Sequence record: NZ_CP023785.1
DNA: 64,000 nt
Reading direction: 5' to 3' (one strand)
Source: a plasmid
A program made the position numbers. Each line of letters starts with the position of its first letter. Positions within the stretch are counted from its first letter, which is position 1. Below are positions 50,501 to 56,500 of the stretch, in pieces.

Positions 50501-53500
50501 CCGAATTTTACACCCTTTTGTTTCGCAGCTTCTACGCCTTCTCTTTGCCGGCTATTAATTCGTTTCCGCTCGTCTTCGGCCATATAGCTGAGTAATTGCA
50601 GAATTAAGTCAGAGATAAGCGTCTCTAACCCATCTAGTTGCTTGTAACTAGCAGTATCTAACAGAGGCATGTCTAACACAGAAATATCAATCTGCTTTTC
50701 CTTAGTTAATTCTCGCCATTCTTCTAAAATCATTTGTTTATTTCTGCCTAGTCTATCTAATGATTGTAGATAGAGTAAATCTCCTTTTCGAAACATCCGT
50801 TTCATTAATTGATATTCAGGGCGTTTAAAATCTTTGCCGCTGGCTTTTTCTACAAATATATATTCTTCAGGGATTCCTAATTCCTTCGCGGAAATCAGTT
50901 GTCGTTCGATCGATTGATCATAACTACTGACCCGGATATAAAAAAATTTTCTCATCGTTTTTATCTACCCTTTTTTCACTAAAATTGTTTCAAAACAATC
51001 AGATTAAATCAGAAACGTTTCAAATTGTATTATGTGGTTATTATGCCATACATAAACAAAGAAAATCAAGGCATGTCAAAAAGTATACTTTTTGAAACAG
51101 TAAGTTTACACTCCCGCATGATTATATTTATTCCGCTAAAATACATAAAAATGGCAGGCCTTAACGGTCTGCCATTAAATAAACTAGTTATCCAGTTTTT
51201 CTTTTATGTCTTCCATGGTATATTTTATTTTTCACATCAGAATTTGACTTCTTTAACTTTTACAATTTTTTTAACACTATTATTCTATTACAACACTATA
51301 TATTTCTAATTTAGGGTTAAAAATAAATCTTTTTGATACTTTTGCCTTTACAATATAATTGTATTCTTTCTTTTTTTCTTTGAAGTCGCTTGATTCAACT
51401 GTAACTTCAAACCACATTTCATTTGGAGACTCTTTTAATTTTTTTACTTGAAATGAATTATCTCTTGGATCATAAGGTGGTACTCTTTCAAACTCAGGAA
51501 GTTTTCTCTGTATTTGTTCTTCAGGAGTATTCGCAAAGTAATCTACTATCTTGACAGTTATTAAAAGTACTACTATTCCCAAAACTATAACAAACATAAA
51601 GATAATTCCACATCCAGAATTATTTTTATTATTTTGAGTCAGATTATTCCATTCTATTTCTTCCATAATCATCATGTCCTTTTACAATTCATATACTTAT
51701 TTTATCGTATATATTTAAAAAGGAAAAGGACACTGTTTAAATAGTAAACGATTCTTAATTAAGTTTACTTCTATTTTCTTGAAATTGAATAATTTTTTCA
51801 GAAAATCCATTTGCAACTTTCCCCTCATCTCCAATAAAATCAAGATAAGTAAAATCTGTCCCAAGTGAATTATTAACTATTTTATCAATGAAAAATGAAA
51901 TTATCCCTACACCTAAGATATCAACTGTTTCGTCATTTTCTAATAAACTATTTGTTACTGAAGCGATTTTATCTGAAGAACCAAATCTGTTCTTAACAAA
52001 TTGATTAAATCTATCAATAGCACCCTTATCACAATAGTACGTTTTTAAAGCCGATAAAGCTGTTGAATCAGAATTTCTTTTTGCTAAGGTATAAACATTT
52101 ACCGCGTCAACATCTTGGTATAAATCTTCTAGACTAAATGTTCCACCTGCAGCCGTACCTACTAATGCAAATACACCTTGCTCCATTTGTATTCCTAATT
52201 TCTTAACTTCACCCCAGCAAGTCATTAAATCTCCTAACCAACCTGCAAAGTCAGAAACACTATCATTGATTGTGTCGGCTAGAAACATCTGTGATTGTAA
52301 CGTCACAATTAAGTGAGGCAAACCTATTATTGAACCAGTATTAGGATCTATAAAATAATTATACAGGCCCTCGCTATTAGTTAATTTATTCCTATATTCA
52401 TCATAAATTTTTCTATCATGCTCTGTTACAGGAGAAGAAATGATGTCCCATGACAAACCAGAATAATTTACATATCTATAAAATGTCAAATGAGGGTTCC
52501 AAGGATTATCAAGACCAGCTTGTGATAGATATTGATACGCACGTACCATCTGATTTATAACCTTCTGATTGTATTTGGCAATGTAATTATCATTATTAGT
52601 ATCATTTGATAACTCATTAAATCCGCTATCTCTACCCGATGTAGCGATTAAATCGATACCAACAGCTCCGTTGCCACTTCCTATGGTAAATTCAACAAAT
52701 TGATCAAAAGACCATTGTCTAGGCATAGGAAAACCTAAATTCCCACTATAACCAGTCGACATATCTGAAACAAATGCAAACGAAGCATACCCGTTATTGA
52801 TTATTTGAGAACAAACATTTCTTGTTCCGTAAACACCCGTTTGATACCCGCTATATGACATTACAGCAGATACCCCCTTAAAATATTCTCCAGCATATGC
52901 AAGAATTTCTTCCCCTAACATGTCTAGATCAACAGCAAAATAAATAACTGTTGTTAATGGTATATTTAGATTTTTTGCTGCATCTATAGCCTTCTTACCA
53001 TCTGATAAGCCACGATCATAAGTAAAATAAGCTAATGCTGCACCTCCATCTTGATAGATAGGAAACACAGATAAATTTTTAGAAAAAATATTATTCAATT
53101 CCTCTGTAGTTAGATACTTATTTCGTTCATCTTTTCCAATTCCAACAGTACCAGTAAGATATCTACCAACTATTTTTATATCATTATCAACCAATGTTTG
53201 GATTTGAGATCTAGTTAATTGCGTAGAAGTATCTGCGCCATCTGCAGATCTTCTAATATCTCCAGCGCTAGACAATAGTCCTTTTATTACAACAACATCT
53301 GCTATTTCAGTATATTCAGGCAATACCATAAATTTTCGGAATGCCAGTACTTCTAAACCCATATATTTAGTGAAAATACCATCGAATGTACCGTCTTCAA
53401 AATAACCATTAACATATAATCCATATTGAATTATTCTTACATAGTTTCCCGAGTTACCTTCAGACACAGGATAAGTTTTACTAGTTGTCCCATTACCATA

Positions 53501-56500
53501 AGACCCTGTTGCTTCACTGGGAGAATATCCTAGTTCAGCTTGTAATGCAAAAATTAATGCTTGATTTGAATTTCTTTGATAAATACCATCACAAGGCATT
53601 ATTCCCGTGTATTCTAAATAATTTACATTTAACCATTGCTGCATTTTTCTAATTTTACTATCTCCGCCGGGAACAAGAACAAAAGCACTCATATCAAATA
53701 ACGCTTTGGCCCATTTCGCATCCAAAACTCCAGTTACAGCGCTTCCATTAAACCCTGCATCAGTCTGCAACTCTTTTACAGCAGTATCTAAATATGGAGT
53801 ATATACCCCATCGAAGCCACCTGGATTAATCCCCTTACACCAAAAGGCACCTTGAATAAGAAATACAATATTTTTAGGTAGATTTTTGCCCCATTTAGGA
53901 GTAACCTGATTATCGTACATTTTTTCAGTGGTAGGTCCAAAATTAGCTACTAGATTAGTAATACCAAGTTCTACTTGTAGTCCTTCAATAAGTCCATAGA
54001 TTGTAGGCCACCCTGTTCGCCCATTTTCTGGAACCTTATCAAACCCTGTAACATTACTGTATTTCTTGTTTAGCCATTTCTGAGTACTTAAAACCATCTC
54101 ATCCATAAAAATCCCCTGCTTTCTTGCCGAACATACGTTCGTTTATGTGTTGATTATATTTTATATTTTAGTGTTTGTCAACAACTAAAAATAATAAAAC
54201 AGCACAAAGAAATCTCTTTGTGCTGTTTTATTAAATATTTTGAACAACATAATACGTACCTGCAACAGGATTATAAGTGTAATAAATACCTATATTCATT
54301 GTCCAACCAGGCCCGTTTGGTGCAAAGTATTTGAATCCTTCACGAGCATACAATGCCATTCCTTGAATAGAACCAGATTTAGTTGCGTTGGCTTGATTTA
54401 CATTTCCTACTCTTCCATCGTCAATGTAGGATTTCCAACGTAAAAAGTTGCCTGTACCATCAGCTGGTTTTACACCCATACCTCCAAAACGCCATCCCGC
54501 ACCACTAAATGGCTGTGATTTATAGCTTCCTCCTCCTGCTAGTACAAGAAGGTGTCCGCTAGTACCAACATCGGGTGGAAATGCTCCTCGAGGCATAATT
54601 GGAGTAGTTTCAATATCATTTTTGAATTTTTCAGCAACAATTTTTTTTGCTTCTGTCACTGAAACTGAAGCAGGATCAGTTTCTGAATTATATGAACCTT
54701 GAATTATATCTGGATTATCCATAGATACAATTTTAGCTTCCCCTTTTAAAAAACCACCTTCTGGCAATGCAAGTACTTTATCTTCTTCTTCAAAATCAGC
54801 AAAGTATCGTGAGGCGTACTGCTCTGGATCTGAAATAACTTCTTTCTCAGCAGCATATACTGCATTTCCAAATGTTAACATCATAAGTAGCCCAACAGAA
54901 ACACCAAAAATCTTTTTCATAATGAATCTTCCTTTACTCTAATTCCACTGAATTAGTTTCTTTTATCTGCTTTAATTCATTTCTTTTACTATTTAAAAGC
55001 TCTTTTAGATCCTTAATCGAAATAGCGTTGGAATCAGTATTAACATCAATAAACTGTCTGTGATTTTGTTTATAACTAACTAATTCGGATTTGCCATCTC
55101 CCATTAATTGCCCACCAGCAGACAAGACAACAATTTTATCTGAGTCACTAATTCCTGGAATACTTTCTTCTAACTGTTCCCCGGATAAATCACCAAATTC
55201 TTTATACAATTCTTCATCTGACATAGAATAGATATTTTTGGTCAAACTCATTTTTTTATTATTATGTTCAGCTACTCTTTGATCTTTTATTTGAGCGTTT
55301 GAATTAACAGAATCTAAATTCAAAAGAAAATAGCCCCCAATTAATATTGTAAATACTGAAAAAATACTTAGTATCGTTTTTTTCACGATTCTCACCTCGC
55401 TTTCTTATTAAATTTATAATATATATCTACGATAAGATAATTGGTTCTGTTGCAAAGTTTTAAATCTACTATCAAATAAGATAGAATAATAGAAAAAGAT
55501 AGCAGGAGGAATAACGATGAATCATTTTAAAGGAAAGCAATTTCAGCAGGATGTGATTATTGTAGCCGTGGGCTACTATCTTCGTTATAACCTTAGCTAT
55601 CGTGAAGTTCAAGAAATCTTATATGATCGTGACATTAACGTTTCTCATACGACGATTTATCGTTGGGTGCAAGAATATGGCAAACTACTCTATCAAATTT
55701 GGAAAAAGAAAAATAAAAAATCCTTTTATTCATGGAAAATGGATGAAACGTACATCAAAATTAAAGGAAAATGGCATTATTTGTATCGAGCCATCGATGC
55801 AGATGGTTTAACCTTGGATATTTGGTTACGTAAAAAACGGGACACACAAGCAGCCTATGCTTTTCTTAAGCGGTTAGTGAAGCAGTTTGATGAACCGAAG
55901 GTTGTAGTCACAGATAAAGCCCCCTCTATTACAAGTGCCTTTAAGAAACTAAAAGAATACGGCTTTTATCAAGGGACAGAACATCGTACCATTAAATACC
56001 TGAATAATTTGATTGAACAAGACCATCGTCCAGTAAAGAGACGCAATAAATTCTATCGAAGTTTACGCACTGCCTCTACCACGATTAAAGGCATGGAAGC
56101 CATTCGAGGATTATATAAGAAAACCCGAAAAGAAGGCACTCTCTTCGGGTTTTCGGTCTGTACTGAAATCAAGGTATTATTGGGAATCCCAGCTTAAATC
56201 ATAGATACCGTAAGGGATTTTATTCTTTATTTAAAACTTTGCAACAGAACCCAAATTTTGTTCCTCCTCAAAGAAAAAGAGACTTTTGGAAAGAATTTCC
56301 AGAGTTCACGTAACCCTAAAAATTCATATCCAAAAATCTCTAGCTTGAAGAAACCTAAAAATATTCGTATAATGAACCTGAGTTACGGAGCTAGGTGAAG
56401 TAGTTTCCGTAAATAGTCGAGAGTGTTAGCGCACTGCTCGGCTTTTATTTTGCTCTTTTTTCTCGTTTTCTTTGATTATAGCACTCCTCCTAAAAAAATA

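Follow-up and report, generated by a model that had tools for sequence, protein, structure and literature searches.

What a block of four genes at 51280-55395 of plasmid NZ_CP023785.1, of which a 64-kb stretch (the window) was analyzed, does for the enterococci that carry it is the question raised by this locus. Its proteins, here called W_153, W_229, W_783, and W_131 after their lengths in amino acids (aa), are annotated as "glycoside hydrolase domain-containing" or "hypothetical," and literature searches, including searches by WP accession, found no paper naming the four. An earlier note, made from the sequence alone, had proposed that the block could be a bacteriolysin or competition module. 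This reading was strengthened by our finding of a TelC-type domain in W_783 and of a BacI homolog in a longer form of the locus, while several of its specifics turned out to be wrong or incomplete. On balance, and with considerable doubt left, we favor the view that the block is a wall-targeted antagonism module built around a TelC-type predicted lipid II phosphatase, probably SOS-inducible, with a TipC-like analog encoded downstream and an accessory cassette upstream.

The evidence that carries this view lies first in the C-terminal part of W_783 (aa ~503-775; 51782-52600, minus strand), which the earlier note had left unplaced, pointing to structure prediction as the way to place it. We are highly confident that it is a TelC-type domain (prok-TelC lipocone; Pfam PF27189, YkzU), and homologs of W_783 carry the PF27189 tag. 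An AlphaFold2 model of aa 490-783 (predicted local distance difference test score, 88.7) is two-lobed and mainly alpha-helical, with one beta-hairpin, and is structurally similar to TelC, whose structure has been described in the same terms, as mostly alpha-helical with a single beta-hairpin. A hidden Markov model (HMM) of 18 domain sequences gave TelC (5ukh_A) as the sole significant match among 177,635 PDB sequences (E value, 1.4e-5); the match runs through three collinear stretches that align Y548, W553, H598, GW.GD (623-626), D661/D665/D667/N670, and R699. Four of these residues, H598, D661, D667, and R699, do not vary among the 18 sequences, and their counterparts in TelC are H, D, D, and R, respectively. 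The synapomorphies described for the prok-TelC clade are a His in helix H2, an Asp in H4, another Asp six residues after that one, and a conserved Arg (PMC12419801); W_783 has the His, both Asp residues in this spacing, the Arg in the C-terminal helix, and an Asp-rich Ca2+ motif, with H598, D626, D661, D665, D667, and R699 as its signature residues. By analogy with TelC, the predicted activity of the domain is cleavage of lipid II, and possibly of further undecaprenyl-linked precursors, at the undecaprenol phosphoester bond.

TelC of Streptococcus intermedius (PDB 5ukh), a lipid II phosphatase and LXG toxin delivered by type VII secretion and paired with the immunity protein TipC, is the nearest relative of this domain. 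The reaction at the undecaprenyl phosphoester, which depends on Ca2+, has been shown for TelC, which is toxic only outside the cytoplasm. The two proteins share only 18% identity. The N terminus of W_783 is a peptidoglycan-binding (PG_binding_1) plus Rv2525c module, and the locus has no LXG domain, WXG100 partner genes, or esx locus. Since the Pfam search gave no LXG hit, we do not file W_783 among the LXG or type VII secretion toxins. TelC added externally does not kill and acts only in the inner wall zone, which provides a rationale for its fusion to a wall-engaging module. The same three-part architecture is found among the fusions of a peptidoglycan-binding domain (PGBD), Rv2525c, and TelC that were predicted to form a cell wall-directed conflict system with rapidly evolving operon partners (Burroughs et al. 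2025, PMC12419801). In the portions of that paper available to us, operon partners are given for Actinomycetota (an Ig-pair protein, or a protein with three transmembrane [TM] segments plus a VanY peptidase), and W_131, the W_153/W_229 pair, the link to the bacteriolysin Bac41, the LexA box described below, and the spread on clinical plasmids are not met with. Among the loci that we fetched for comparison (designated by L-numbers), L032/L033 contain at 7986-8987 a stand-alone 197-aa TelC-like fragment that lacks the wall-binding N terminus, and a 135-aa TM-anchored protein comes next. Possibly the two are what is left of a toxin and an orphaned immunity gene. A functional parallel exists in Escherichia coli: colicin M, the control in TelC assays, carries out on lipid II the reaction predicted for W_783, although it has an unrelated fold, enters through FhuA/TonB across the outer membrane, and belongs to a Gram-negative system. 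Colicin M is a protein toxin that is encoded on a plasmid and released, and its immunity protein, Cmi, has its anchor in the cytoplasmic membrane, on the outer face.

The front end of W_783 connects the protein to BacA, the Bac41 component of E. faecalis pYI14-type plasmids. Residues 1-290 (53237-54106, minus strand) form four peptidoglycan-binding-type helical repeats; the domain was rightly recognized in the earlier note (PF01471; E value, 2e-11), while Pfam marks two stretches rather than the three repeats counted there, and internal comparison resolves an (A-B)x2 arrangement of four units (repeat z-scores, 7.9 and 5.8). Residues 304-485 (52652-53197, minus strand) form an Rv2525c-like (DUF1906, GH25-like) TIM-barrel domain, also proposed earlier and borne out by the HMM search (PF08924, Rv2525c_GlyHyd-like; E value, 5e-41; 141 bits against a gathering cutoff of 27.2). 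Hydropathy analysis found neither a hydrophobic N terminus nor a TM segment, as expected from the earlier claim that W_783 lacks a signal peptide, a feature that it shares with BacA. The repeat-plus-Rv2525c layout is common to both proteins, and aa 1-~500 match BacA at 48% identity, so that the BacA/YbfG-like architecture that had been proposed holds for this part of the protein but not for the C terminus. BacA ends in Pfam Ybfg_C and a hydrophobic tail, and the two C termini are unrelated (hhalign probability, 0.2%). The C termini of BacA and of its Lactococcus garvieae relative were tried as TelC-like domains and rejected, having no relation to the TelC-like profile; BacA itself is thus not of the TelC type.

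In Bac41, the endopeptidase activity of BacL1 is necessary and insufficient for killing, and BacA is required although wall-degrading activity was not detected for it and its activity is described as undefined. Locus L002, from an E. faecalis plasmid, carries the Bac41 genes, whereas tblastn found no match to BacL1 (as the earlier note had said), BacL2, BacL3, or BacL4 in the window, and no BacI homolog was found anywhere in it. W_783 also lacks Ybfg_C. Both loci lie on enterococcal plasmids. The B. subtilis proteins YkuG/YkzU and YbfG belong to the same family, and the Pfam C-terminal types are named after YkzU and YbfG; their genes differ from that of W_783 in being chromosomal, and a literature search for ybfG/ykuG turned up no function. 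Among the best 120 family members, the shared N terminus bears YkzU, Ybfg_C, PF14751, or no recognized C-terminal domain. As far as these sequences go, a common front end with differing C termini in the wider family is the arrangement of polymorphic toxins. The Rv2525c region also matches a PHROG endolysin family (E value, 1e-16), and the full-length protein matches phrog_15213, of unknown function (E value, 1e-141). A phage origin of W_783 was considered and rejected, with homologs in only 2 of 50,697 phage records; phrog_15213 may derive from plasmid-like or prophage-adjacent sequence.

The second line of evidence concerns transcription. A hairpin with a 19-bp stem (54192-54233) follows directly after the stop codon of W_229, in agreement with the bidirectional terminator of the earlier note, and the W_783 gene has the consensus promoter of its own that had been claimed for it (TTGACA-17-TATAAT, 12/12 match; 54181-54153, minus strand); together they separate the W_153-W_229 operon from the W_783 gene. 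This sigma-A promoter is conserved in the E. faecalis variant L025. Eleven nucleotides downstream of the -10 hexamer, between it and the ribosome-binding site of the W_783 gene, lies a feature that the earlier note had passed over, a perfect Firmicutes LexA (SOS/Cheo) box, CGAAC-N4-GTTCG (CGAACATACGTTCG; 54128-54141), the LexA operator of B. subtilis and Staphylococcus aureus (PMC9578287). It is the only match with at most one mismatch in the window, and all seven perfect boxes in 477 kb (window plus fetched loci) lie upstream of hydrolase genes of the W_783 family. The box of the Lactobacillus plantarum homolog (44% identical; L003, 5872-5885) stands directly after a -10-like TAAAAT, and in L025 the arms of the box are kept and the spacer is changed. 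With a perfect site next to the promoter, LexA binding is predicted, and the W_783 gene is probably SOS-inducible.

The earlier note had suggested an immunity role for the 131-aa product of the gene that adjoins the W_783 gene downstream, pointing to the place of bacI in Bac41. Position and membrane topology fit this role, since W_131 has one strong N-terminal TM segment and an ~85-aa soluble domain (hydropathy), but the protein is not BacI-like: it was tried as a BacI homolog and rejected for want of any sequence similarity. The more fitting comparison is TipC, in which an N-terminal TM segment is joined to an inhibitory domain that faces outward, and on the strength of its position and this topology we infer that W_131 is a candidate immunity protein, an analog of TipC in topology. 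It has no Pfam match and no similarity to any PDB chain, TipC included, and its matches are confined to Enterococcus and Staphylococcus plasmids at 78% identity or higher. Compared with the downstream proteins of nine other loci, it matched L030 alone, weakly and within the TM region. There, a convergent gene encodes a 137-aa TM protein with a GCGIFF-type TM motif as in W_131 (BLAST E value, 0.006 to 0.04). At 2974-6957, the same locus has the gene for an 844-aa LysM-PGBD-Rv2525c-TelC protein, immediately preceded by a glucosaminidase-LysM gene.

At most loci examined, the YkzU-type gene is followed directly by a gene for a small membrane protein or lipoprotein, the family of which varies by locus. 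L006, L032, and L034 encode a TM-anchored partner, L011 and L028 encode a lipoprotein, and the partner is multi-TM in L009, L014, and L003. In L035, from a Lacticaseibacillus (L. casei) chromosome (CP136128.1), two tandem 79%-identical 3-TM paralogs at 7408-8757 follow the YkzU-type gene and look like an immunity gene array. Partner families that vary between close relatives and tandem paralogs are typical of immunity genes rather than of conserved regulators. In L037, the 750-bp gap downstream of the YkzU-type gene holds no called gene or convincing ORF (open reading frame). The multi-TM partner in L003, on L. plantarum plasmid NZ_CP078130.1, is a 196-aa ORF (8402-8992) that is missing from the PLSDB table.

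Upstream, W_229 has the signal-peptide-like N terminus of a Sec-type secreted protein and W_153 has an N-terminal membrane anchor (hydropathy), in line with the secreted/anchored pair of the earlier note. The note had regarded this pair as separate and without recognizable homology. It does form its own transcription unit, but it is a conserved cassette linked to BacA-type genes rather than an incidental neighbor, and remote-homology searching uncovered both W_153 homologs (35% identity; E value, 4e-16) and a W_229 family. The latter emerged in an exhaustive search; a word-indexed search gave near-identical sequences only. In W_229, the signal peptide is followed by a small domain of four strands and a helix (aa ~40-104) and then by a jelly-roll domain (aa ~120-229), and the C-terminal ~55-aa domain of W_153 is common to the N-terminal domain of W_229 (tblastn E value, 3e-5). 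W_153 homologs adjoin W_229 homologs in L012-L016. There is no Pfam model for the W_229 family, and Pfam finds nothing credible on W_153, W_229, or W_131; an NCBIfam search of all four proteins gave noise only. One small domain is common to W_153 and W_229, which are likely to pair, and we favor a complex at the membrane surface that would serve either in inhibition or immunity or in targeting.

The cassette stands beside a BacA-type gene in four independent settings: the present window, an 8.5-kb plasmid of L. garvieae, the metagenomic contig L014, and the Faecalicoccus metagenome-assembled genome L017. In L017 (CABVDD010000037.1, 50-6156) the arrangement is Bac41-like, with a BacA-like gene, a Phage_holin_4_1 gene, a gene for a CHAP-domain protein, two tandem W_229 paralogs, and a lipoprotein gene; an ABC transporter and a two-component system come after this cluster. 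Cassettes that stand alone adjoin regulators of the BlaR1/BlaI, LytTR, or Rgg type. In L018 (3364-4931; Waltera) and L019 (8186-9753; Holdemanella) the cassette is divergent to a BlaR1 (M56 peptidase)/BlaI-type sensor-repressor pair. For W_153, NCBI annotates a 150-aa product that starts with the GTG at 55386; the spacing to the AGGTGA ribosome-binding site is better for this codon than for the GTG at 55395, where the mechanically called ORF starts.

The ancestry of the block is seen in a longer form, 97 to 99% identical, in seven E. faecalis plasmids. Two extra genes lie there upstream of W_153 (L025, 6013-7198, NZ_CP091903.1; L026, 9129-10299, NZ_CP119161.1). One encodes a 175-aa four-TM protein (WP_010730144.1) that is a full-length BacI homolog (25% identity over 172 aa; E value, 7e-11), located upstream and not downstream as in Bac41; the other encodes a 203-aa protein (WP_048947200.1) with a weak PHROG hit to an HslV-family/Ntn-peptidase-like group. 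In the window these two genes are replaced by IS1216 (IS, insertion sequence), whose end lies 48 bp from the W_153 start codon. We therefore lean toward regarding the block as an IS1216-truncated copy of an E. faecalis plasmid antagonism locus from which the BacI-like gene has been lost.

All four ORFs of the block were recovered by ORF calling where the earlier note had placed them, on the minus strand: W_153 (54934-55395), W_229 (54231-54920), W_783 (51755-54106), and W_131 (51280-51675). Measured against the E. faecalis variant, the ratio of nonsynonymous to synonymous changes (pN/pS) is 0.08 to 0.39 for the four genes (0.19 for W_153 and 0.08 for W_131), and, these values being below 1, the ORFs are real coding genes. 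The note had described a four-gene module bounded by IS1216-family copies. The bounds are indeed IS6-family elements on both sides, although different members: IS1216 at 55443-56251 (plus strand; 18-bp inverted repeats at 55443 and 56251) upstream and, by alignment of IS copies, an ISS1N-like element at 48408-49215 (plus strand; 18-bp inverted repeats) downstream. The segment between them (49216-55442) carries eight ORFs rather than four, the others being a 5'-truncated resolvase gene (up to 49752, plus strand) and, on the minus strand, a 55-aa ORF (49797-49964), a BRCT protein gene (49998-50303), and a resolvase gene (50338-50955). The order of these cotraveling genes (49216-50955) is identical in L001, L005, L025, and L026. 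As in an IS6/IS26-type composite, the flanking copies are directly oriented, and mobility as a unit, which the note had claimed, is plausible, with the qualification that the moving unit comprises more than four genes. More than 200 Enterococcus plasmids carry the block at 100% identity. Repeated IS6-mediated rearrangement is indicated by a 129-aa fragment of the IS1216 transposase (48031-48420) that lies directly against the ISS1N-like element. Further IS1216 copies or solitary IS6-family inverted repeats lie at 37441-38249, 44448, 47977-48425, and 58449-59257 of the window, and Rep_trans/RepD-like fragments lie at 46443-46814 and 57478-58461.

The plasmids with identical copies are mostly 150- to 300-kb E. 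faecium plasmids from clinical isolates, and extra IS insertions are frequent in them. A relative of W_783 was found by tblastn in 573 plasmid records, 260 of them at 99% identity or higher; others occur on 8- to 10-kb nonmobilizable plasmids and on chromosomes. Conflict genes near the homologs include Agr-type kinase/LytTR pairs and genes for ZoocinA_TRD-like proteins, an LXG toxin, and a Fic protein. The neighbors of YkzU-type genes in L006 (3832-4428 and 7633-8235) and L009 (370-1824, 8424-8822, and 9436-12219) encode paralogous secreted proteins with weak ZoocinA_TRD hits, as well as the LXG toxin, the Fic protein, Agr-type kinase/LytTR pairs, and a 132-aa protein resembling the jelly-roll domain of W_229 (E value, 0.004).

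Taken together, the favored reading of an SOS-inducible, wall-targeted toxin suggests the following course. LexA would repress the W_783 promoter through the 54128-54141 box, and DNA damage would relieve this repression. As TelC is nontoxic in the cytoplasm, W_783, having no signal peptide, might build up there harmlessly until its release, possibly through lysis of a damaged subpopulation. Its N-terminal module could then bind, and perhaps loosen, the wall of a target cell, so that the toxin domain would reach lipid II in the outer leaflet and block wall synthesis. Carriers would be protected by W_131, much as TipC protects against TelC, and the secreted W_229 and anchored W_153 could act as a pair at the membrane surface, as an accessory inhibitor, an immunity factor, or a targeting factor.

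Several observations weigh against this reading. For export of W_783 we found no signal peptide, holin, or LXG/type VII secretion signal, and a wall-cutting partner such as BacL1, which Bac41 needs, is absent from the window. The true BacI homolog has been lost from the window copy, and comparison of W_131 with TipC and with the products of downstream genes elsewhere detected no similarity. There is no LexA box upstream of bacA or of the lactococcal homologs, nor at bacL1, a further difference between Bac41 and the present locus. In six of eight genome loci the W_153/W_229 cassette has no BacA-type gene within 10 kb; such co-occurrence figures come from small samples, the locus scans having given eight loci per alignment. 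A survey of E. faecium bacteriocins does not include the locus, some plasmids carry the block further interrupted or with the gene truncated, which argues against strong selection, and some homologs lie between chromosomal housekeeping genes without other conflict genes (L011, L035, and L037).

The last of these points would be expected if W_783 served the producer's own wall, trimming or recycling undecaprenyl-linked precursors and remodeling peptidoglycan under stress, with the small membrane proteins as regulators or anchors. The settings in question are purA/hrcA-grpE-dnaK (L011), dapA-dapB (L035), and tyrS/PBP (L037), the family includes chromosomal YbfG-type proteins of the B. subtilis group, and the missing export signal of W_783 and the undetected wall-degrading activity of BacA would also suit self-directed maintenance, as would the housekeeping roles proposed for related lipocone families such as VanZ (PMC12419801). 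We nevertheless judge this rather unlikely: the TelC clade is so far known as toxin only, the downstream partners change family between close relatives and form tandem paralogs, carriage is mainly on plasmids (the 573 records) with other conflict genes adjacent, and the ancestral locus encodes a BacI homolog. In a second alternative, the window copy would be a decayed remnant of a Bac41-like multicomponent bacteriolysin: stripped of essential parts, namely its original upstream region and the BacI-like and 203-aa genes, it would now travel as inert cargo with IS1216 and resistance genes. Replacement of the upstream genes by IS1216, more than 200 truncated copies against seven E. faecalis plasmids with the long form, insertions of IS3, ISL3, and IS256 and 5'-truncated copies in some plasmids, and a near-100% identity across plasmids that would reflect recent spread and not selection can all be understood in this way. 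Yet the four ORFs, promoter, LexA box, and terminator are intact in the window, pN/pS against the long form is 0.08 to 0.39, and the effector with its downstream membrane protein, the minimal unit of other loci, is complete, so that we hold decay to be unlikely.

The LexA box on the W_783 promoter would also fit a suicide device in which DNA damage or phage induces W_783 and the protein, acting from the side of the membrane that faces outward, kills the cell that made it, releasing DNA or plasmid or blocking the phage. The endolysin match of the Rv2525c region, the match of the whole protein to phrog_15213, and the lack of an export signal can be cited for such self-lysis or abortive infection. 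It is nonetheless improbable in our view, because homologs are all but confined to nonphage records (2 of 50,697 phage records), the locus has no holin, TelC is nontoxic in the cytoplasm, so that self-killing would still need export, and an immunity-like partner would be pointless. We give almost no credence to a conjugation-associated hydrolase that opens peptidoglycan for a plasmid transfer apparatus; the block does reside on large, often conjugative plasmids, but its relatives also reside on the small nonmobilizable plasmids and on chromosomes, no transfer genes are adjacent in any locus examined, and no known transfer system makes use of a TelC-type domain.

Beyond the locus itself, it is possible, as a tentative extension of the toxin reading, that the BacA family consists of Gram-positive polymorphic toxins independent of type VII secretion, in which the PGBD-Rv2525c front end carries interchangeable killing domains through the thick wall as far as the membrane surface, each with a fast-evolving membrane immunity protein. 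The enterococcal form would then be an SOS-induced, released lipid II phosphatase and a counterpart of colicin M, and W_153/W_229 would be extracytoplasmic inhibitors or immunity factors that also provide orphan protection in streptococci and gut Firmicutes. If true, this would account for the "undefined" role of BacA in Bac41. The analysis has in any case brought to light the W_229-type small secreted proteins as a widespread family, and a natural fusion of TelC with a wall-engaging module suggests a possible means of delivery through the Gram-positive wall that is relevant to engineered lysins. If the module is active, more than 250 sequenced Enterococcus plasmids, including many large clinical E. 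faecium plasmids, carry a lipid II-directed protein toxin that could influence displacement among hospital clones; if DNA damage induces W_783, quinolones and similar drugs could trigger its release. For BacA-type proteins in general, our results offer the testable idea that the wall-engaging scaffold stays constant and the killing end varies.

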